Of a DNA stretch of 64,000 nt, positions 4,899 through 57,126 are shown piece by piece (the first letter of the stretch is position 1; the number at the start of each line of letters is the position of its first letter). Below the pieces are notes generated by a model that was not told the origin of the DNA, made no database searches, and was given only the letters and a program-made list of their open reading frames with translations. Made by a program: the position numbers and the translations under genes. Source of the DNA: Octopus vulgaris (Eukaryota); assembly GCA_951406725.2 (NCBI GenBank), contig OX597829.1:7936001-8000000 (forward strand), given 5' to 3'.

Positions 4899-5190
4899 TT
4901 AACCCTTTGTCAACCACAGTCATAAATGTCAATGATTAACAATTTCATTAGCATGTTTCTTTTGAAATGCATTATTCTGTTTTGCTTTTTGTATTGTTTT
5001 TTCTGCTTTTTTTTTTTCAAATTTATTTTGAAAATAATAAAGAATATAGTAATTAGTCATTATTAAGCTGGTGTTTGGAACATAAAATGAGAAACTTTAA
5101 AGGAAGGTTTTTAATTTAGTTTACCTTAAAACAGAAAGTCTGTCAAAAAGTCAGGTGTAGTCTGAGGCAAGTTGGCATTAAGAGAGTTAA
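4899..5190. mobile_element. possible piggyBac-type MITE
   Basis: Bounded by TTAA-CCCT at 4899 and AGAG-TTAA at 5190; the TIR match is short and imperfect. Confidence 0.4.
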
Positions 5191-8030: not shown

Positions 8031-9701
8031 AATGATTCATTGACTGGACAATCTTAAAACAACATTAACATTCCCGCCCCCCCTGAGATATCTTCTGCAT
8101 AAAGTACATTTAATTAAGTAAGAGTTAATGTACATAATGAAGTAGGCATAAAAAGGCTGAAAAATGTCCAGACACACTCCCTGCTACATAACTTCATTTA
8201 ATTTTTAAACTTTGGAGATGGTTCTCTTGCCTTCTTTGACAAGCATCTTCATTAATGCTAACCCCTTTGCATTGCTGGTGTAAATTACATTGATTAGACA
8301 TTTATTTTCTGGTTCACTACATAATATTAACCTGGTCTTGATTTTATGTTCTTCATGCAGAAAGAATTCCTGGGAATTTTTCCAAATATTACAACTAATA
8401 ATTCATTATGCATAAAGCCCTGATTGTGGCAAATGGTGAGAGCATCAAGTAGGATGAAATCCAACAATTGGAAAATCCTGTTTATAAATTGCTAAATAAT
8501 ATCACAGAGTAGATGAATTTCTCAGATTTTCAAGAATGCGTGAGTAATCTACAAACACTTGTACCTTTCACTTTTAATATCCAGTTGAAAATTTTCAAGT
8601 GAAAAGCCAAGTCATCAGAAGACTTAAAAATAAACTGTGTTTATTCAAATGTTTATAGTATTTTTACTTATGGTCAGATTGTGAAAATTAGTAATATTTT
8701 AGGAAGGATTTAATTTCTCTTTAGTGTTAATAGGCATCTGTACAAAAAATAATACTGTGCATGAGTATTTACTACAAAATAATAACTAGAAAATGAATAC
8801 ACTAAAAAAAAATGAGAAAAGAAAGATGCTAGTAATAAATTAAATGCAACCTGTAACAGATACGGATGCATAAACATCACAATAAAAAAAATGCTTTTTT
8901 TTTTTCTTTTTCTGGCTGTTTGTAGCTTATTCCTTATGAAATCTACAGGTAAGCTAAATTACATTAACAGAAATAACATACTGATTCCTTTTAGCTTTTA
9001 AAACTTTTCTCCAGATAATCATGCTAATGTTTTAGTTCTTTACAACAATTTATATTATCAAGAAAATTCAACAGAAAATGTTAACACTAAAGAGAAGTCC
9101 GCTAAAACTAATTGAGAAAAAGAAAATTTGGGAATTCACACACACACACACAAACACAAAAAATACTAAAACACACACGTGTGTGTGTGTGTGTTTGTAT
9201 GTTTAGATGTGTACACAAACACAAATTCACACTCAGAAAACAGACACATAAAACTATAAATAGATATTTATACAGACATAATTATGATAAAGAACAAAAA
9301 GCCATGCCTTAATTATACATTGTGCTAATATTAGGAGAAATTCCATAAATGCGATAATTTCCTATTTGCTTTCTCTGTGAATCACCTAATTGCTAAGAAG
9401 TTAAAAACTGTAGCTCTGAGAAACTAAAGATAACAATAAGTTTGAAGTGAGGCTATTTCATAAACAAAATAATTGATCAATCTAATTGTTATCAATTGTG
9501 GACAGTTAAAATAGTGGATCGTGAAACAAGGTGTTTCCAGTTCATAACTTGGCAAAGCTAATTCTCATAATAAAAACAAAATAGCCTACTTTCTCTTGTT
9601 CAGGGAGGAAATCCACTCCGTTAGTTTCTGATTCCTAATGATTCAAGTAAATACATAATTTAACATGTATAAGTATCAACTCATAATGCTAAAATTTAAA
9701 A

Positions 9702-13876: not shown

Positions 13877-16256
13877 AACAAAACATTCCGTTCATCTTGC
13901 TGAGTCAAAACATTTCGTTCGTTTTGCGGAGTCAAAACATTTCGTTCGTTTTGCGGAGTCAAAATATTTCGTTCGTTTTGCTGAGTCAATACATTGCGTT
14001 CCTCTTGCTGAGTCAAAACATTTTGTTCGTCTGGCTGATTCAAAAAATTTCATTCGTTTTACTGAGTCAATACATTTCGTTCGTTTTCCTGAGTCAATAC
14101 ATTTCGTTCATCTTGCAGAGTCAAAACATTCCTTTCGTCTTGCTGAGTCAAAACATTTCGTTTGTTTTGCTGAGACAAAACATTCCGTTCATCTTGCTGA
14201 GTCAAGACATTTCGTTCGTCTTGCTCAGTCAAAACATTTCGTTCGTATTCCTGAGTCAAAACATTTCGTTCGTTTTCCTGAGTCAAAACATTTCATTTGA
14301 TTTCCTGAGTCAAAACATTCCGTTCGTCTTGCTGAGTCAAAACATTTCGTTCATCTGCTGAGTCAAAACATTTCCTTTGTCTTGCTGAGCCAAAACATTT
14401 CGTTCGTCTTGCTGAGTCAAAACATTTCGTTTGTCTTGCTGAGTCAAAATATTTCGTTCATCTTGCTGAGTCGAAACATTTCATTCGTTTTGCTGAGTCA
14501 AAACATTTCATTTGTTTTGCTGAGTCAAAATCTCTCATTCGTCTTGCTGAGTCAAAAAATTTCATTCGTCTTGCTGAGTCAATACATTTCATTCGTTTTG
14601 CTGAGTCAAAACATTTCATTCGTCTTGCTGAGTCAAAACATTTCATTCGTCTTGCTGAGTCAAAACATTTCATTCGTTTTGCTGAGTCAAAACATTTCCT
14701 TTGTCTTGCTGACTCAAAACATTTCATTCTTCTTGCTGAGTCAAAACATTTCATTTGTTTTGCTGAGTCAAAACATTTCCTTTGTCTTTCTGAGTCAAAA
14801 CATTTCATTCGTTTTGCTGAGTCAAAACATTTCATTCGTCTTGCTGAGTCAAAGCATTTCATTCGTTTTGCTGAGTCAAAGCATTTCATTCGTTTTGCTG
14901 AGTCAAAACATTTCATTCGTCTTTCTGAGTCAAAACATTTCATTCGTTTTCCTGAGTCAAAACATGTCATTCGTTTTGCTGAGTCAAAACATCTCATTCG
15001 TTTTGATGAGTCAAAACATTTCATTCGTCTTGCTGAGTCAAAACATTTCATTCATTTTGCTGAGTCAAAGCATTCCTTTGTCTTCCTGAGTCAAAACATT
15101 TCATTCGTTTTGCTGTGTCAAAACATCTCATTCATCTTGCTGAGTCAAAACATTTCCTTTGTCTTGCTGAGTCAAAACATTTCATTCGTTTTGCTGAGTC
15201 AAAACATTTCATTCGTTTTGCTGAGTAAAAACATCTCATTCGTTTTGCTGAGTCAAAACATTTCATTCGTCTTGCTGAGTCAAAACATTTCATTCGTTTT
15301 GCTGAATCAAAACATTTCATTCGTCTTGCTGAGTGAAAACATTTCATTCGTTTTGCTGAGTCAAAACATTTCATTCGTCTTGCTGAGTGAAAACATTTCA
15401 TTCGTTTTGCTGAATCAAAACATTTCATTCGTCTTGCTGAGTCAAAACATTTCATTCGTTTTCCTGAGTCAAAACATGTCATTCGTTTTGCTGAGTCAAA
15501 ACATTTCATTCGTTTTGCTGAGTCAAAACATTTCATTCGTTTTGCTGAATCAAAACATTTCATTCGTTTTGCTGAGTCAAAACATTTCATTCGTTTTCCT
15601 GAGTCAAAATATTTCATTCGTTTTGCTGAGTCAAAACATCTCCTTCGTTTTGATGAGTCAAAACATTCCTTTGTCTTGCTGAGTCAAAATATTTCATTCG
15701 TTTTGCTGAGTCAAAACATCTCCTTCGTCTTGCTAAGTCAAAACATTTCATTCATTTTGCTGAGTCAAAACATTCCTTTGTCTTGCTGAGTCAAAACATT
15801 TCATTCGTTTTGCTGAGTCAAAATATTTCCTTTGTCTTGCTGAGTCAAAACATCTCATTCGTTTTGCTGAGTCAAAATATTTCATTCGTCTTGCTGAGTC
15901 AAAACATTTCATTCGGTTTGCTGAGTCAAAGCATTTCATTCATTTTGCTGAGTCAAAGCATTTCATTCGTCTTGCTGAGTAAAAACATCTCATTCGTTTT
16001 GATGAGTAAAAACATCTCATTCGTCTTGCTGAGTCAAAACATTTCATTCATTTTGCTGAGTCAAAACATTTCATTCGTTTTGCTGAGTCAAAACATTTCA
16101 TTCGTTTTGCTGAGTCAAAACATTTCATTCGTTTTGCTGAGTCAAAACATTTCATTCGTCTTGCTGAGTCAAAACATTTCATTCGTCTTGCTGAGTCAAA
16201 ACATTTCATTCGTCTTGCTGAGTCAAAACATTTCCTTTGTCTTGCTGAGTCAAGAC
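13877..16256. repeat. 27-bp minisatellite, about 88 units, consensus GCTGAGTCAAAACATTTCATTCGTTTT
   Basis: Direct inspection; 9-aa periodicity in ORF translations ([27 protein letters not shown]); copy number estimated as length/27. Confidence 0.98.
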
Positions 16257-16468
16257 ATATATATATACATACATACATATACGTACATATATATACATAC
16301 ATACATATACATACATATATATATATATATATACATATATATATACATACATACATACATATACATACATACATATATATATATATACATACATACATAC
16401 ATATACATACATACATACATATATATATATACATACATATAAATACATACATACATATACATACATAC

Positions 16469-21363: not shown

Positions 21364-22280
21364 ACTACAAAATTAGAGAATGGAGAAACATACTTAAATC
21401 AGTAAAACATCAACTATCCGATGATACTCAATCCATACTTTAATACACCATTACATATGAGTAAAGGCAATATATAAAATGAAATGAGATATACAGTAAT
21501 AGTAAAAAGATAAAGAGATATAAGTAAAAAATTTCAAATATAATATGCAAATAAATCAAAACTGACAGCTGTTTCGGCAGTGAGGGCAGTCATACCTCAT
21601 TTAACCTATAAGCCATAAAGGCAGGTATAAATGAGGCATTAACAAGGATGCCCCACGGACCTGTTCAGAGAATTAAATTAAATTTGTTATAATAGTGAAA
21701 AATATTATATAATCATATACATATAAATATAAAAATATAAAAATGTATTTATATGTATATGATTATATAATATTTTTCACTATTATAACAAATTTAATTT
21801 AATTCTCTGAAGAGGCCGTGGGGCATCCTTGTTAATGCCTCATTTATACCTGCCTTTATGGCTTATAGGTTAAATGAGGTATGACTGTCCTCACTGCCGA
21901 AACAGCTGTCAGTTTTGATTTATTTGCATATTATATTTGAAATTTTTTACTTATATCTCTTTATCTTTTTACTATTACTGTATAACTCATTTCATTTTAT
22001 GTATTGCCTTTACTCATATGTAATGGTGTATTAAAGTATGGATTGAGTATCATCGGATAGTTGATGTTTTACTGATTTAAGTATATTTCTCCATTCTCTA
22101 ATTTTGTAGTATTAATTTACGGTAATATTATTACCTTTACCCATATAATGCAATAGATGAACTGATTGTTTGACAATTTTTAACATCTATGTATTAATTT
22201 TGTTGGGTACCTATCTAGCAGTATATTGGATATATATTATCCCATGGTGGGTTGAATTTTCAACCCCTATCTCATTTTAT
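21364..22280 (+). mobile_element. ORF-less palindromic element (366-bp inverted arms plus about 170-bp extension), probably a Penelope-like pseudo-LTR derivative
   Basis: 21364-21729 is the reverse complement of 21746-22110 with a few mismatches and a 16-nt spacer; contains a hammerhead motif; homologous to about 28700-29049. Confidence 0.8.
21801..21916 (+). ncRNA. type I hammerhead ribozyme motif with long stem II (family A)
   Basis: CTGAAGA 21807-21813; stem II GGC..GCC extended by gtgggg/cctcac and atgcctcattta/taaatgaggtat; GAAAC 21899-21903; palindromic stem III ACAGCTGT; GUC cleavage triplet ending 21910; stem I short (ct/ag). Confidence 0.75.
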
Positions 22281-23386
<1,106 letters not shown>

Positions 23387-23778
23387 ATATAATATTAATT
23401 AGAGACAAAACCACTATTTTGCAAATCAAACAAGGAAAGACTTAATCAATACATAAAAAAATTTTAATATAAAGTAAATAAATCACCACTACAATTGTTT
23501 CCTGTCTTCAAATGACATTCATAACTTTAAAATTGAATAGAAGATATGAAATCCACCTGATGAATGTCATTTGAAGACAGGAAACAATTGTAGTGGCGAT
23601 TTATTTACTTTATATTAAAATTTTTTTATGTATTGATTAAGTCTTTTCTTGTTTGATTTGCAAAATAGTGGTTTTGTCTCTAATTAATATTATATAATAT
23701 TTTACTATAAAATTGGATTCAATCCTAAATCTGATTTTTCCCTGTAAATTTGGATTTATTCCCTAATATTTATTATTA
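23387..23778 (+). mobile_element. ORF-less palindromic element (136-bp inverted arms, 37-nt spacer, about 80-bp extension), probably a Penelope-like pseudo-LTR derivative
   Basis: 23387-23522 is the reverse complement of 23560-23695; the hammerhead motif spans the spacer/right-arm junction. Confidence 0.8.
23549..23602 (+). ncRNA. type I hammerhead ribozyme motif (family B)
   Basis: Stem I CCAC(23553-56)/GTGG(23593-96); CTGATGA 23557-23563; stem II TGTC/GACA with an A.G opposition next to the core; GAAAC 23581-85; palindromic stem III ACAATTGT; GUA triplet ending 23592. Confidence 0.75.
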
Positions 23779-23800
23779 CATACATACATATATATATATA

Positions 23801-25031
23801 CGAAGAGATCATGCTTGACCAACTTACTAGTAATGGAAGAATTGGTGACGCGCATCCTCGATGATAGTGATGCTGTTGACATCGTTTTACTGGACTTTGC
23901 CAAAGCTTTTGACTCGGTAAACCACCGCCTATTACTTGTCAAGCTTCAAGCCTATAGTTTCCATCCGGATATTGTACGATGGGTTGGTGCCTTCCTCTCA
24001 GATCGCTCCTTCCAAGTCCAAGTTAATGGTTCGCGGTCCGACGTCTCCAGTACGAGCAGTGGCGTGCCTCAAGGTTCAGTGCTTGGGCCCTTGTTGTTCT
24101 TAGTCTTCATAAATGACTTGCCCGACGACCTCACGCAACACACCCTTCAATTTGCCGACGATATCAAACTGGTCGCTCCTCGCGGTAATATAGAGGATCT
24201 TCGTCGATGCCTCCACCAAATTTGGAAGTGGTCTAACGATTGGGACCTGTGTCTGAACGTGTCAAAGTGCTGTCATCTGCCTGTCAGCTCTACTCCTGCA
24301 ACTCAACTTGATTTCGAGCCGGGTCGTCTGCTGCTGGAGAGGACCGATCAGGTAAAGGACCTAGGTATCTTGGTGGATTCCTCCTTTTCGCCTTCGGCCC
24401 AGTGCGTCCATGCTGCCAACAAAACACGCGAAATTCTGTTCTTGATTCGACGGTCATTCGGAATGCTCACAGCAGCCATATTCCTACCACTCTATGTCAC
24501 GCTGGTGAGACCCATATTGGAGTATGGGATTCAAGCCTCTTCTCCTTATCTCCTCAAAGACATACAGCATCTCGAAAGAGTCCAGAAGCTGGCTACCCGC
24601 ATGGTTCATGGTCTCAAATATTTGTCCTACGAAGAAAGGCTGAGGACATTCGACCTTTATTCTCTTGAAAAACGCCGCCGCCGTAGTGATCTCATTCTCG
24701 CCCACAATATCATAAGCGGAAAGTGTAACCTCTCGAAAGAGCTGTTCTTCACTCCTGCTCCAGAGCGTCGGCTGCGGGGTCATTCCGAGAAGCTCTACCT
24801 GCGACGATTTCATCTCAATCGAAGGAGAGGAGCTTTCTCCGTCCAGGTTGCAGATCCGTGGAACAAGCTGCCAGACGAGATGGTAAAGATGCCGACGACC
24901 GCTTTGTTCAAAGCCTCCCTGGACCTCAAGTGGCCTGAACTCTTTACATGAACACCACCCTGTACTTAACTCCATGTCCCCCTACATGGCCTTGCTATTT
25001 GCTTTTGAGCCAAATTAACTAACTAACTAAC
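23801..25031 (+). mobile_element. young 5'-truncated CR1-group LINE with uninterrupted RT reading frame
   Basis: ORF 23815..24951: LDFAKAFDSV, SGVPQGSVLGPLLF, FADDIKL, KDLGI, RPILEY, WNKLP; short 3' UTR ending in (TAAC)n; both flanks are microsatellite. Confidence 0.96.
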
Positions 25032-26634: not shown

Positions 26635-27048
26635 CATATATATATACATACATCATATATATACATATATATATATACATACATACATATATATACATAT
26701 ATATATATACATACATACATATATATACATATATATATATACATACATACATATATATACATATATATATACATACATACATATATATACATATATATAT
26801 ACATACATACATATATATACATATATATATACATACATACATATACATATATATATACATACATACATATACATATATATATACATACATACATATATAT
26901 ACATATATATATACATACATACATATATATACATATATATATACATACATACATATATATACATATATATATATACACATACATACACACATATATATAT
27001 ATACATACATACATATACATATATACATACATACATACATATATATAC
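25032..27048. repeat. 2-kb compound (TACA)n/(TA)n microsatellite
   Basis: Direct inspection. Confidence 0.98.
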
Positions 27049-29049
27049 ATTATGTTATTCATCTATTCCTTTTTTGTACTCATTATCTACAGGTATAAAT
27101 TTACATAATATTAGCCTGTATTCTAAGTTTATATTAGTACTTTCTTCAATATATATCTTCACTTTATTTTATGTTATTTATTTACATATATACTCTTTTA
27201 AGCATATATGGATATATGCATATTAGCATTACTACATATTAGGTGTACCTGCACCTATGTATTTATCTGAATTTGTTCTCTAGTGTATCTATCTACTCAT
27301 TTAGGCATCTACTTATTTATTTATTTACTTATTTAAGTGTAGATATATACATATATATCAATTATTTATTTTAATAATTAATATATGGATACACGTATAC
27401 TGGTTTGTACTTATATTATGTATGTAATCTTAACTATTTCTTCTTTCTTATTTATTTTATCACATTTTTAACTTAAGTATTTACAATTTATTAACTTATA
27501 ATTAATTTAATTTCTGTTATTTACTTATATTTAACTGTATTAGTTAGTCCCCCATTGATATTATTGAATGCCAAATCTTGTTAATTATCACATTTGTTAA
27601 CTATGTCTCCACGGTTGCTTAAAAATATATTTTTATATATAAGTACTTTAAATGTTTTCTCGCGAGCCGCATATGAGTATGAACGGTGCGTTTGTTTATA
27701 TCTGATGATACACATGAGTATGTATATCTGAGTGTAATTCTATTAGCTCGTAGGTTAGGTTCCTTGTTGGTTAAATATTAATATTATAATGGCACTGGAT
27801 TTATTACGTAGAAAAGATATATATTTATAATATAAAAAATTAATCTATACTTTTTAACTTAGCGTACATGCGATTATGGCAAATTACGGTGAAATCAGTA
27901 ATCGTTATGTTGACTACAGAAAAAACCGGTGTTCACATACTGAGTGTACCCTGCGAAAATAACATCCGATGTCGTGATATATAATTATATGTATCTTTAA
28001 AACAAATATTTTATGGAAATATATGAGTGGATCTATTTTGTTAATTTTGTGGCATGTTTTTAGTTTTGGTAAGCTGAATGGCTGCATGGATAGGATTATA
28101 CCTCTTTTATTATTTATTTATTTATTTATGTGTTGGACTGGGTTTGTGGATATGTATGGGTATGAGTGTATGTGTGTGTGTATACATATAATTATGTATG
28201 TATGTGCGATTGATCTGTGGATGTGCGTGTGCGTTTCTTGACTAACTAACCGTAAAATTTCTTTTGTGATTCAAATTTTAAACTATAAGCCAATCGAATT
28301 AATCTAGAATAATCAATATTAAGCGGACAGAATAACCAGACTCTTAGTTATGTCGATATCCGGTATCTATTATTATTATTATTATTATTAATATTAATAG
28401 TAATTCTTATTGACTTTTGCAGGTTTATAATTTTATGAACTGAAATGTGGTTTTTTATTATTATTTTTCATGTATAGGTCTGATTTTAATTTAAATGTGA
28501 GTGTGCATATATTTTCCTGTGTGTTAACTTTTAGAACTATTAGCTCAATATGTAGAATAATTTTGCTTACTAATATATATTGATATATATTTTGTTTTAT
28601 TTTGTTTTGTTTATCTTGTATTATTGTATTAATGAATATATATATATGTATGTGTAGTATTATGGTGTCTATGCACACGTTTTTATATTTTACATTTTTA
28701 TATTTATATGTATATGAAAAAACTTTTTTCACAATTATAATTTATTAAATTCTCTGAAGAGGCCGTGGGGCATCCTTGTTAATGTCTCATTTATACCTGC
28801 CTTATATGGCTTATAGGTTAAATGAGGCATGATTGCCCTTACTGCCGAAACAGCTGTCAGATATGATATAATTACATATTATATTTTATATTTTATATTT
28901 CTATTTCCTTGTCTAATTATATTTACAATATATTTTGTATAATGCCTTTACTGTTATGTAATGGTGTAATAAAGTATTGATTGGGTATCATCTGATAGTT
29001 GATGTTTGATTGATTTAAGTATGTTTCTCCATTTTCTAATTTTGTAGCA
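27049..29049 (+). mobile_element. AT-rich non-coding segment ending in a family-A hammerhead/pLTR, probably the 3' remnant of a Penelope-like element
   Basis: 28750-29049 is homologous to 21800-22110 (ctctgaagaggccgtggggcatcc..; gatagttgatgttt..tctccatt.tctaattttgtag); bounded by microsatellite on both sides; whether the upstream 1.7 kb belongs to the element is uncertain. Confidence 0.55.
28748..28864 (+). ncRNA. type I hammerhead ribozyme motif (family A, second locus)
   Basis: tct-CTGAAGA(28754-60)-GGC..GCC-GAAAC(28847-51)-AGCT-GTC(28856-58)-aga; stem I tct/aga; long stem II retained. Confidence 0.78.
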
Positions 29050-51129: not shown

Positions 51130-52932
51130 AGATAGAAATAACTACAGGGGTATCAAACTGCTGGATCAGGTGATGAAGGTTACGGAGAGGGTCATAGCCC
51201 ATCTAATAGAGAGAGACTCTACTTAGATGAGACGCAATTTGGTTTTGTGCCGAGTAGAAGCACCACTAATGCCATGTTCCTGGTTCGACAACTACAGGAG
51301 AAATACCTAGGTAAAGATATACCCCTGTACATAGCTTTTGTGAACTGGGAGAAAGCTTTTGACAGGGTCCTCCGATCCCTTATCTGGTGGGTGATGCAGA
51401 AACTGGGGATTGACGAATGGTTAATAAGGGCTGTACAGGCCCTGGCAATGCATATAGTGAAGAATTCTGGGTAGAAGTAGAGGTCCACCAAGGTTCAGCC
51501 CTCAGTCCCCTTTTATTCATCATAGTCCTACAGATAATAACAGAGGAATTCAAGACAGGTTGCCCTTTGGAGCTCCTCTATGCTGATAACCTGGCCCCCA
51601 TAGCAGAATCACTACCAGAACTAGAAAAGAAATTTGGGGTGTGGAAGCAAGATTTAGAATTAAAGGGCCTTAGAGTCAATGTAGCAAAGACCAAAGTTCT
51701 AGTAAGTCCGAAAGCAAACACATCATACCCACTGCCTTCAGGTAGATGGCCCTGCTCGATGTGTAGAAAAGGTGTAGGTAGAAACTCCATAAGATGTACC
51801 CAATGTAAGAGATGCAGAAACATCAAAGGGAGATTAACTGTGAAGATAGCTTTCATGTGTGGCAGATGCACAGGGGCAATAAACACAACAGATACTCAGT
51901 AAACAGATTCCATCACACTCCAGGGGAAAAAAACTAGAATTAGTGATAGCTTCCACTACCTAAGTGACCAAGTTAGTAGTGGGGGTGGATGCTCAGAGAG
52001 TGTTACCACTAGAATAAGAATAGCCTGGGTAAAGTTAAACTTTACCCAGGCTTCTACCCCTACTGGTGACAAAAGGCCACTCGCTCAGAATGAAAGGTAG
52101 ATTGTACGATGCATGAGTGCAAACTGCCATGCTTCACGGCAGTAAAACATGGGCCGTGACTGCAGAGAACATGCATAGGCTCGAAAGAAATGAAGCTAGC
52201 ATGATCCGCTGGATGTGTAATGTCAGTGTGCACACACAACTGAGTATAAGTGCCGTGAGATAAATGTTGGACATAAGAAGCATAGATGTGGCATTCAAGA
52301 GAGACATTTGCGCTGATATGGTCATGTACTAAGGATGGATGAGGAGAGATGTGTGAAGAAGTGCCACTCCCAAACAGTTGCAGGAATCCGGAGTAGAGGT
52401 GGACCGAGGAAGACATGGGATGAGGTGGTCAAGGATGACCTTCAAACGTGGGGCCTCACAGAGGAAATGACGGAAAACCAAGACCTCTGGAGATATGCTG
52501 TCACTGCGAAGACCCAGCAAATAAAGTGAGTTCATGACTGTATCCTACACCAGTTTTGCATAACCAGTCCCAGCTCATTCAAAGTACCTTGGATTGTAGG
52601 GCAACCAGGTGTGCTTGAGGTGACCTATTGAGTCAAGTACATCAACAACAAAATAAAAATCAAATGGAAATTGTAGTTGAGATACCCGTGCCAGTGGCAC
52701 GTAAAAAGCACCAACCGTTCATGAATGTTGCCAGCCTCCTCTGGCCCCTGTGCCAGTAGCACGTAAAAAGTACCCACTACACTCACGGAGTGGTTGGCGT
52801 TAGGAAGGGCATCCAGCTGTAGAAACACTGCCAGATCAGACTGGAGCCTGGTGCAGCCTCCTGGCTTCCTAGACCCCGGTCGAACCATCCAACACATGCT
52901 AGCATGGAAAACAGATGTTAAATGATGATGAT
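51130..52932 (+). mobile_element. RTE-clade LINE, 5'-truncated RT pseudogene with complete 3' UTR
   Basis: NYRGIKLLDQVMKV, QFGFVP.RSTT.A.FLVRQLQEKY, EKAFDRV, VHQGSALSPLLF, LLYADNL; multiple stops and frameshifts; (GAT)n tail. Confidence 0.95.
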
Positions 52933-53210
52933 AATAAATATACATACATACATACACATATATATATGTATGTGTGTGTATGTATATATACTTCAAGTGA
53001 CACATACACACCAATATACACTCGCGCACACACATAGATATTCATTCACACAAATGAAAAGCAATGAAAGTATGTGTGTGTATGTGTGCATGTGTGCTAT
53101 TTACTGACAAAATATATATATATACATATACTAATATACATACACCTATCTGTAGATATATGCAAATATATATATATGTATATATATATTTTTGCATACA
53201 CACACACATA

Positions 53211-54516: not shown

Positions 54517-54549
54517 TATATGTATGTATGTATATATATATATATATAT

Positions 54550-55125
54550 ATCATCATCATCATCATCATCGTTTAACGTCCGTTCTCCATGCTAGCATGG
54601 GTTGGACAGTTCGACTGGGGATCTGGGAAGCCAGAAGGCTGCACCAGGCTCCAGTCTTATCTGGCAGTGTTTCTACAGATGGATGCCCTTCCTAATGCCA
54701 ACCACTCCGTGAGTGTAGTGGGTGCTTTTTACATGCCACCTGCACAGATGCCAGGCGAGGCTGGCAACGGCCATGGTTGGATTGGTGTATTTTATGTGCC
54801 ACCGGCACGGAAGCCAGACGAGGCGGTGCTGGCATCGGCCACGAGTCGGATGGTGCTTTTTACGTACCACCAGACCAGGGATCCTGGCTGGTTCAATTCG
54901 ATTTCGATTTCGCTTGCCCCAACATGTCTTCGCAAGCAAGGGGGTTGGCATGGGTGCCTGTTTTACGGTCAGATTGGTGTATTTTACGTGCCACCGGCAC
55001 TGAAGCCAGTGGAGGCGGCGCTGGCATCGGCCACGAGTCGGATAGTGCTTTTTACGTACCACCAGACCAGGGAACCTGGCTGGTTCAATTCGATTTCGCT
55101 TGCCCCAACATGTCTTCGCAAGCAA
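54550..55125 (-). mobile_element. RTE 3'-UTR/tail copy with an internal duplication of about 155 bp
   Basis: (CAT)n tail; 54780-54938 is repeated at 54972-55125. Confidence 0.88.
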
Positions 55126-55263: not shown

Positions 55264-55438
55264 AAATATAAATAATATTAATAGAAATATTTATAATGAT
55301 AATAATAAGGATAATACAAATAGAAATAATATCGGGAATGAGGATAACAATTATATCTATAGCAGTAATAATTATTCGGATATAAATACAAATAATAATA
55401 ATAGCAATACCAATAATGTAGGTAATTGTGATACTGTT

Positions 55439-56026
55439 ATGGTAGATCTAAATGATAGTGTAAACGGATCGATAAATAGTAACCCAATTTTAGATAACAA
55501 TATTACCTTTAATAACGAAAATAATACTCATAATAATTTGAATAGCAGCAATATGAGAGATCTGTCCTTAAATAATTCTAAATCTGAAAATTATCCCCCT
55601 AGTTGCAATTGTAGGATTAAGTCAAAATGTCCGGCATCTGGTCGGTGTTTGGTCCATAATTTAATCAATAAATGTACTATAACAACTTCGAATAGTAACT
55701 TTTTTTACCTGGGTTGTACTATTAATTTTAAACTGAGACTTAACAATCATCTCTCCTCTTTCCGGTTAGATCATAAAGCTGGTTGCACCACACTTTCCAG
55801 TAAAATTTGGGAACTCAAAACTAATAATATTAAATATAACCTAAAATGGGAAATAGTTAGAAGGGCAGTACCTTATAGAAATAATAGGGTGGGCTGTCAA
55901 CTCTGTTCCATGGAGACATATGAGATTCTAAAGCATAGAAAAAATAAAAATCTACTAAATAATTGTATAGAGTTGGATATATCTTGTATTCACTCAAAAA
56001 TCAAAATTTTAAAATATTTCAAATAG
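55439..56026 (+). CDS. C-terminal GIY-YIG endonuclease domain of a Penelope-like element (truncated ORF; the Met is internal)
   Basis: YLG motif, catalytic-type Arg in FKLR, HLSSF, CxLC..E, LLN; the first motif reads LINKC instead of xIYxx. Confidence 0.75.
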   Translation: MVDLNDSVNGSINSNPILDNNITFNNENNTHNNLNSSNMRDLSLNNSKSENYPPSCNCRIKSKCPASGRCLVHNLINKCTITTSNSNFFYLGCTINFKLRLNNHLSSFRLDHKAGCTTLSSKIWELKTNNIKYNLKWEIVRRAVPYRNNRVGCQLCSMETYEILKHRKNKNLLNNCIELDISCIHSKIKILKYFK

Positions 56027-56955
56027 AAATTTTGTAAGTTCTCCTATTGTTGTTCTTTCTAACTGCACCTTTTTAATATAAAAATAAGTACTAATTGTAC
56101 TATGCTAATTTTTAATTGACTTTATAGTCAATTTAATTAACCTTACTGAAATTTAAAAATTGCTAATTTTTCCAAATTCTATTCTAAATTTAACATGTAA
56201 TACTATTCCCTTAGTGATACTTTTGATTTTCACTATAAATTTTGAATAGGTACGATTCTCCTACCATTTGCTATTGATGTTAATTGACCTCTAGATGTTA
56301 ACCTAAATTCCTTCTTACCATATAAAAACAAAAGTTAAAATATAAACTATAATAAATAAATAACCCTCTATTCTAGTGTTAACCTTAATTTTCTTACTGT
56401 ATCTCTCTCTACCGATAACCTATGACTCCTTTAATGTTTTCCTTTGATCTTCCTGTATTCTTAATCCCACTATTAATTCTGTGAGTTTTTCAGTTGAGAG
56501 CTGGTGGTGGTCAAACTTACAGTTCTTTTAAGAATTTAAGATTCCTTCTACACTGACCTAGATTTTCTGTCCCCACAGATATAGACTGACCTTTCTTTGT
56601 AGTATCTTTATTCCTTCTTACATCCCCATTATATTTTTTTCTCCTGCTGTCCTTTGCTCTAGCTAAACCTACCCCGCTGTCTTTCATGCTACTATAGAAT
56701 TTTGTCTGCAACAGTTAGATGCGAACTTAACCATAGACTGACCGGCATCTCTCCTCATGTTTCTTGGAACTTATATCCACATCTTGATGAGTAGATTTAT
56801 CTTCTCTGGCATATCAATAATTAATTTAAAAACTTTGTATTGTTGGAAAACATATATAGTCTGTTTGGAATATTACTTCAAATTCATGGAACTACTCCTA
56901 TAACTTCATAAGGATATTTACACGCTCTAAGAATATATGGAAAACCTATATGAAA

Positions 56956-57042
56956 TTTAGCTGAAGAATACTTGACATTATATTTGGTGTAATATTTGCA
57001 GCTTTAAATAAAATGTTTATAGTATGAAACAATTGTACTAAA
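56956..57042 (+). ncRNA. type I hammerhead ribozyme motif (family C)
   Basis: Stem I TTTAG(56956-60)/CTAAA(57038-42) perfect; CTGAAGA 56961-67; stem II ATACT/AGTAT perfect with a long loop; GAAAC 57026-30; stem III ACAATTGT; GUA triplet ending 57037. Confidence 0.85.
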
Positions 57043-57126
57043 CTACTGATCCATTCTTCTTGCTTTTTTCTTGGTTATATATATATATATATACTCATAC
57101 AAATAGAAAAGTATATGCTCATACAC

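Follow-up and report, generated by a model that had tools for sequence, protein, structure and literature searches.

A hammerhead-bearing palindrome in an Octopus vulgaris microsatellite, read as a probable 5'-truncated PLE insertion

What kind of element leaves, inside a microsatellite of the octopus genome, a palindrome of ~390 nt with one complete hammerhead motif and a tail at one end only, and how did its mirrored half arise? The element in question (23387-~23777) lies in a 64-kb stretch of Octopus vulgaris DNA (contig OX597829.1), referred to here as the window, and is made of two inverted arms, a spacer and a one-sided extension, with microsatellite on both sides (Table 1). The reading favored here, at a probability of roughly 0.8, is that it is a heavily 5'-truncated insertion of a Penelope-like element (PLE), a retrotransposon, probably of the Hydra clade, comprising the last ~170 nt of a pseudo-LTR (pLTR) and the tail that follows, joined head-to-head with a shorter mirror copy. 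How the mirror was made, and whether the hammerhead is active, are separate matters that call for lower confidence.

A one-tailed palindrome and its repeat family

The first-pass annotation of this DNA had described 136-nt arms around a 37-nt spacer, a 3' extension of ~80 bp and microsatellites on both sides. All of this was borne out: the arms are complementary at 134 of 136 positions, the extension runs 82-83 nt beyond the right arm, and the flanks are a 1.1-kb TRF array on the left and a run of ~23 nt on the right. The two mismatches between the arms (23435/23647 and 23485/23597) are each C/T on the element sense strand, that is, two transitions. The final 100 nt of the left flank hold 19 C and no G on the + strand, and positions 23776-23799 of the right flank hold 3 C and no G, so the flanks read as a single interrupted array and not as mirror images of each other. 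Within the spacer lie ATATGAAAT, one strand of stem I (the 5' one) and three bases at the start of the hammerhead core. The left arm reaches on the outside to the mirror of 23695/6, where family contigs enter (TA)n, and on the inside to that of 23560, a position within the hammerhead core. A perfect A/T palindrome of 16 nt, noticed after the fact and equaled in length in 6 of 500 shuffles, is a candidate internal (TA)-like site of cutting or priming. The whole element is predicted to fold into one long hairpin (-209 kcal/mol), and the tail taken separately folds no better than shuffled sequence (z -1.3). There is no second copy of the element within the 64-kb window, and no ORF is attached to it.

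Table 1. Coordinates of the palindrome, its flanks and related features, in window positions.
Feature	Position	Strand	Basis or remark
Left flank, (TA)n/(TACA)n microsatellite, likely insertion target	22278-23386		TRF array 22278-23395, 1.1 kb
Inverted arm, tail-less 5'-truncated mirror of the element's 3' end	23387-23522	-	134/136 complementary to 23560-23695
Spacer, 37 nt, extra 5' sequence of the direct copy	23523-23559	+	
Type I hammerhead motif	23553-23596	+	own descriptor; predicted cut after 23592
Direct arm, 3' part of a pLTR-like end	23560-23695	+	covered by family contigs in 4/4 runs
Perfect A/T palindrome, 16 nt, centre 2 nt from tail-less end	23686-23701		longest perfect palindrome in unit
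One-sided tail, 82-83 nt, (ATT)n at its end	23696-~23777	+	family contigs
Right flank, ~23-nt (TACA/TA) run, strand polarity as left flank	23778-23800		
5'-truncated LINE reverse-transcriptase fragment, open frame	23800-24951	+	PF00078, E 5e-24
Third copy of the 21364 family	28688-29047	+	83% identical
Hydra-clade-like PLE 3' fragment, separate from the palindrome	55265-57078	+	CxCX5C, GIY-YIG, hammerhead 56957-57044

Other repeats are scattered through the window. The LINE fragment to the right starts 23 nt after the tail, and fragments akin to it, interrupted by microsatellites, lie at 16.9-18.1 kb and 58.7-60.4 kb. A 27-bp satellite occupies 13879-16258 (88 copies, 88% matches), and two inverted 290-nt copies of another repeat (52686-52967 and 54518-54810; 83% identical) lie 1.5 kb apart.

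Contigs from public sequencing runs were compared with positions 23500-23785. This sequence was found, whole or in part, in 20 of 24 listed runs (13 of them with at least half of its words), from 10 studies and under four organism labels. No RNA run is listed among those that contain it, which has no bearing on expression. Four of the 20, one per label, were analyzed; they yielded 7572, 1337, 2521 and 430 matching contigs. One contig of run X1 (record 1) spans 23549-23624, which makes spacer and ribozyme family sequence, and two contigs (X2-19 and X3-29, 2 of 32 among the pieces listed) bridge the boundary between arm and tail with at least 31 nt on each side, which makes the tail family sequence as well. 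The family ends at two places on its 3' side. Behind 23696, which mirrors the outer limit of the left arm, loose ends continue into (TA)n in at least 34 contigs of X1, 9 of X2 and 19 of X3, with none among the matches listed for X12. Loose ends running into (ATT)n/(TA)n begin behind 23770-23782 in all four runs (at least 26 in X1, 19 in X2, 20 and 17 in X3, and 6 in X12).

Contig depth, zero at 23500-23509, climbs strongly in the 3' direction; contigs can neither rank parts of the element nor show absence. The central junction is bridged by no contig of the four runs, to be read with the same restriction, and neither the cut site nor 23560 has a listed pile-up of contig ends, which in any case cannot show RNA ends. 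Eight family positions carry another letter at 3% of depth or more, and the less-common letters at 23599 and 23656 occur in both arms, a weak sign of common descent from one template. In X2 and X3 there are contigs with a different sequence 5' of 23624, which suggests a sister subfamily with the same 3' end and tail and another hammerhead region. No description of the family was found in the open literature, a scope that excludes most subscription papers as well as Repbase and Dfam, and three DNA motifs of the element have no match in the accessible Craig supplement (PMC8557442), a text whose line breaks can hide matches. The family is apparently unlisted, yet of a known kind.

Probable kinship with PLEs and proposed origin of the mirrored arm

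PLE insertions are described as strongly 5'-truncated, frequently provided with an inverted 5'-truncated copy and a tail of 30-40 bp at one end, biased toward microsatellites, and carrying hammerheads in the pLTR (PMC8557442). The same source ascribes the tail to endonuclease resolution and calls the formation of inverted ends and tails open; for the Hydra clade it lists (TA)n as the target of 26 of 27 families, next to canonical hammerheads and a CxCX5C linker. Cervera and de la Pena in 2014 reported pairs of PLE motifs on opposite strands, separated by 100-700 bp (PMC4209133). In Adineta Pen2a the inverted pLTR is 37 bp shorter than the direct one and a 31-bp tail is present (PMC3846280). 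With Anolis PAc in vitro, the protein cuts and extends both strands of the target, and reverse transcription begins at two start sites flanking the tail, mainly with uncut RNA as template (PMC11167929).

Full-length endonuclease-bearing PLEs have an ORF for RT plus GIY-YIG and direct pLTRs in partial tandem, and Hydra-clade proteins a C-terminal GIY-YIG devoid of CCHH and a DKT motif. The octopus palindrome shows several traits of an endonuclease-bearing PLE, namely a hammerhead in the pLTR, a 5'-truncated inverted copy that meets the direct one at the 5' end, and an optional tail with two 3' ends; its own flanks and the (TA)n loose ends of other copies add the insertion into (TA)n that marks the Hydra clade. 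With Hydra-clade entries such as Hydra-1_Obim of Octopus bimaculoides and Penelope-13_HM it shares a type I hammerhead, placed 30-200 nt from the 3' end in that clade, with a short palindromic stem III, a GUA site (11 of 25 entries), the (TA)n target and an unpaired base of stem II; an inverted 5'-truncated copy is recorded in one of those entries, Penelope-13_HM (PMC8557442). Unlike them, it has no ORF, an A.G opposition in place of U.U or U.C, and a tail of 82-83 nt, and by eye its hammerhead and 3' end differ from those of Hydra-1_Obim. Pen2a and PAc likewise offer a shorter inverted copy, a tail at one end only, an AT-rich target and copies that pass through the hammerhead cut site (PMC3846280, PMC11167929), whereas the octopus element consists of the two ends alone, its tail exceeds 31-40 nt, and no target-site duplication can be read inside its microsatellite. 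Among the points that weigh against a PLE stump are the missing ORF, a tail longer than the usual 30-40 nt, a sub-threshold Rfam score and an A.G opposition seen in 0 of 25 Hydra entries.

A second feature of the window bears on the clade. The fragment at 55265-57078 has, in order, an asparagine-rich stretch, CxCX5C, GIY-YIG, a long 3' region, a hammerhead and a (TA)n end. Its ORF (55265-56026, + strand; CxCX5C and GIY-YIG within 55595-56023) gives a weak Pfam GIY-YIG match, below cut-off (E 0.005), is assigned to Atlas GIY-YIG clusters at 0.96, and by eye resembles the Hydra-1_Obim endonuclease in alignment. The closest database protein, with 79% identity over 62%, comes from Octopus sinensis, where it bears the name 'myelin gene regulatory factor-like A', and is probably a misnamed transposon fragment. 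The hammerhead of this fragment (56961) and that of the palindrome have 9 identical nt in register 5' of stem I, a post hoc observation matched in 1 of 200,000 random draws; they share an identical GAAACAATTGTA and keep the same stem I pairing even though three of the four pairs are changed on both sides. The base of stem II is A-U in the former and A.G in the latter. Alignment of the whole units is not significant (p 0.37), so the likeness is a clade hint and does not identify an autonomous partner. Taken on sequence, Hydra-clade membership is somewhat better than an even bet. Neither a tblastn search of the window, which turned up no second endonuclease, nor the three DNA motifs sought in the accessible Craig supplement (PMC8557442) revealed the autonomous partner, and the 133 candidates examined include no longer homologue of the 55265-56026 endonuclease.

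The other hammerhead palindrome of the window, the 21364 element, is 1109 nt away, in agreement with the ~1.1 kb given by the first-pass annotation, which also saw no obvious similarity between the two. That too stands: the best local score, a single 50-nt in-register likeness, has p=0.025 as one of 12 comparisons, and kinship of the two families was not accepted on that basis. The annotation's wording, in which 'again' ties the single complete strand to an arm that stops in the core, does not fit the neighbour. The mirror arm of the 21364 element continues ~70 nt beyond the core, and its minus-strand motif is spoiled because of a core G>C change and one inserted base within 5 nt (21655-21662 on the minus strand), not by truncation; elsewhere its arms differ at ~4-5 of 365 positions. 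The idea that an arm end within the core carries some meaning of its own was rejected, as the neighbour does not share it. Ownership of the spacer differs as well: in the 23387 element it belongs to the tailed copy, and in the 21364 element the 16-nt spacer (21730-21745) is family sequence on the mirror strand, that is, of the tail-less arm (12/16 against 5/16, with the 28688-29047 copy as reference). Since the neighbour differs in both arm stop and spacer strand, the common layout reflects general PLE anatomy and not a shared core stop. The earlier proposal that two families with one layout point to a common insertion mechanism is supported to that extent; the mechanism had already been published for PLEs, which the proposal did not name.

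The 21364 tail (167 nt) folds well (z -4.0), and Rfam gives no hammerhead match for that element. The 28688-29047 copy of its family has an intact hammerhead with a long stem II and a GUC site, and neither tail nor mirror arm; 1.6 kb of AT-rich sequence (27047-28687) lies upstream of it. Two short AT-rich motifs were noticed after the fact: in both elements CTCTAATT precedes the tail-less end by 6-10 nt (23678-23685, and 22096-22103 for the 21364 family), and CCCTA precedes the tail end by 10-15 nt in each.

A way in which such mirrors might form can be drawn from the PAc and Hydra data. In a (TA)n target, each strand would be nicked by the RT-GIY-YIG protein of an autonomous element. Reverse transcription would then have two starting points on the RNA, the source of the tailed end (~23777) and of the tail-less end (23695), respectively. 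A single uncut RNA would serve as template for the two cDNAs, which would read across the position of ribozyme cleavage, halt near a common 5' point and be joined there, so that the mirror would likely be made in the same insertion as the direct copy, and the hammerhead would be a passenger of the pLTR. The distance between the two 5' ends is no more than 37 nt in the 23387 element and ~20 nt in the 21364 element; with exponential lengths of 100-1000 nt assumed, independent truncation would give both distances with a probability of 0.06-0.001. The less-common letters shared by the arms, the close 5' stops and the fact that either arm may be the longer one favor double copying, a step that is drawn from two elements. 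A mirror made in this way, by copying one RNA twice and joining the products where both stop at the 5' side, is given about even odds.

Its nearest competitor keeps the PLE origin and has the first cDNA fold back and copy itself, an endonuclease then trimming one arm at the AT palindrome where pLTR and tail meet. Self-priming was proposed for Pen2a from palindromes at inverted junctions (PMC3846280), and trimming would accord with the endonuclease resolution to which the tail has been attributed (PMC8557442). The short spacers of both elements (37 and 16 nt), the rare letters common to both arms of the 23387 element and the 16-nt AT palindrome at its tail-less end are all in keeping with such a course. 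Two facts tell the other way. The 21364 spacer, being on the mirror strand, is not explained by plain fold-back from a tailed copy, since the strand made first would then need to shed its tail afterwards; and two start sites of reverse transcription, as known for PAc (PMC11167929), account for both ends without any trimming. We regard fold-back as a serious contender, at odds of about one in three.

The hammerhead motif and the base of stem II

The hammerhead at 23553-23596 is as the first-pass annotation wrote it, including the predicted cut after 23592. Stem I is formed by CCAC (23553-56) and GTGG (23593-96; 4 bp), the core is CTGATGA (23557-63), stem II is TGTC/GACA (4 bp), GAAA follows at 23581-84, and stem III is the palindromic ACAATTGT, with cleavage predicted behind GUA. 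All core elements (C3-A9, G12-A14, A15.1-U16.1 and H17) and all three stems are present, and the motif sits 100 nt from the tail-less end, in the 3' pLTR. At the mirror position the minus strand reads AAGTTATGA and lacks core and stem I, which confirms, for this element, both that the inverted arm ends inside CTGATGA (at the mirror of 23560) and that the + strand alone encodes a complete motif. In a control with 100 dinucleotide shuffles of the window outside its microsatellites (49 kb), the hammerhead descriptor matched four times in the window and never in the shuffles; stem III is palindromic in three of the four matches (23557, 28754 and 56961). At 27702-27740 (+) there is also a CTGATGA followed by a TACAC/GTGTA stem with no adjoining GAAA, possibly a decayed hammerhead, possibly chance.

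Minimal PLE hammerheads are said to conserve the G10.1-C11.1 pair strongly (PMC4209133); in the octopus motif this pair, which would form the base of stem II, is absent, and A23564 stands opposite G23580. The earlier description of this A.G as non-canonical is right insofar as the canonical pair is missing and no A.G occurs among the 25 Hydra-clade entries; what it did not take into account is that an unpaired base here is common in that clade. By our own count in Craig File S2 (PMC8557442), the position is an unpaired U.U or U.C in 15 of 25, the remainder being 2 G.U, 7 G-C and 1 A-U behind a bulge. A paired base of stem II is thus typical and not required. No other letter reaches 3% of depth at 23564 or 23580 in any of the four runs, with the proviso that contigs drop rare variants, and this, together with the frequency of unpaired bases in the clade, speaks against a defect of one copy. 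No report of A.G at 10.1-11.1 was found in the open literature, a scope that takes in few subscription papers.

By score the motif is not a member of Rfam RF00163 (Hammerhead_1): the whole model aligns, with 10.8 bits (E 7.8) against a gathering threshold of 34. As a monomer, its minimum-energy fold (-5.6 kcal/mol) differs from the hammerhead fold (-3.6 kcal/mol), with z 0.8-1.1 relative to shuffles. None of the eight variant positions falls among the 37 positions of core and stems, an outcome expected by chance with P 0.29, so that conservation is not significant; the family variants at 23569 and the inserts at 23573-75 all lie in loop II. It could be argued from this low score, the unremarkable monomer fold and the level of conservation that the hammerhead motif arose by chance or is dead, with A.G marking a family that has lost cleavage, the more so as PAc inserted in vitro without needing ribozyme cleavage (PMC11167929). 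Chance is hard to reconcile with a complete core, three stems and a palindromic stem III, matched in none of the 100 shuffles, and with a position and form found again in two other families of the window, and loss of function is no necessary consequence of an unpaired stem II base when 15 of 25 Hydra hammerheads have one (PMC8557442). We judge a dead or accidental motif improbable, at perhaps one chance in five.

The minimal metazoan PLE hammerheads resemble the octopus motif in being type I, with a 4-bp helix I and a palindromic helix III that predicts dimeric cleavage; the octopus motif differs from them in lacking G10.1-C11.1, in a helix II of 4 bp and in having a helix III (PMC4209133). 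A minimal PLE form was inactive in vitro as a monomer (PMC4209133), and the PAc hammerhead cuts only with its protein (PMC11167929), for which reason an inactive RNA, proposed earlier as a refutation, would be an ill-posed one. Cleavage is predicted to need dimerization via ACAATTGT or the help of a protein, and in a transcript spanning both arms the hammerhead would be buried in the 136-bp hairpin of -209 kcal/mol. Taken whole, a model in which one uncut RNA is copied twice by a dimeric RT-endonuclease and the hammerhead is active with its fixed A.G appears doubtful, falling between fold-back and a dead or accidental motif in probability.

Some matches were set aside. The 15 Rfam matches on the element are all sub-threshold and mostly hairpin miRNAs, which were rejected as an identity for it, and Rfam matches over the whole window are swamped by miRNA models hitting microsatellites. 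A scan with the motif pattern found nothing in metagenome contigs and nothing in viral contigs. In a Dehalococcoidia genome (L001) a CTGATGA-ATGTC...GACAG-GAAAC pair was rejected, as no matching stems I and III were seen by eye; its two members (5001-5029 and 8180-8208, minus strand) belong to a more extended duplication and are spaced 3179 nt from each other.

Remaining alternatives and significance

There remains the view that ~390 nt is about the full length of a short non-autonomous element, retrozyme- or MITE-like, that is mobilized in trans and whose unit may itself be palindromic. The lack of an ORF and the high copy number under four organism labels would suit it, and so would the non-LTR retrozymes, which are described as non-autonomous PLE derivatives occurring in many cases as monomers and which are, like the octopus element, short, non-coding and provided with a type I hammerhead (bioRxiv 10.64898/2026.07.22.740005). 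Those retrozymes are defined by tandem units (same source), however, and the octopus element shows no head-to-tail arrangement and one complete ribozyme. The 28688-29047 copy of the neighbouring family has no mirror arm. A MITE or foldback DNA element was rejected on the tail, which is family sequence, optional and outside the inverted repeat; an element with terminal inverted repeats would give neither such a tail nor many tail-less copies. The non-autonomous alternative is accordingly held to be a long shot, around one in eight. A fold-back artefact of sequencing or assembly, to which arms of 98.5% complementarity inside long microsatellites and a central junction known from this assembly alone might point, is scarcely credible given flanks that are not mirrored (both C-only on the + strand), a tail on one side only, a left arm end that coincides with the family's tail-less end in other runs, and two transitions between the arms.

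If the PLE reading is correct, hammerhead palindromes in (TA)n should be recognized by annotators as PLE stumps, and not as miRNA hairpins, MITEs or a new ribozyme system. Three points keep a particular interest: the fixed A.G, the length of the tail, and the value of PLE stumps as a test of how PLE inverted ends form. The A.G opposition, should the ribozyme be active, would be one more tolerated variant of the hammerhead core. Transcription through palindromes of this kind is predicted to yield long double-stranded RNA. Were one RNA indeed copied twice, the many mini-palindromes of several families in this genome would be a large natural data set in which double copying can be set against fold-back, and junction statistics over many PLE stumps could test the formation of inverted ends without an in vitro system.
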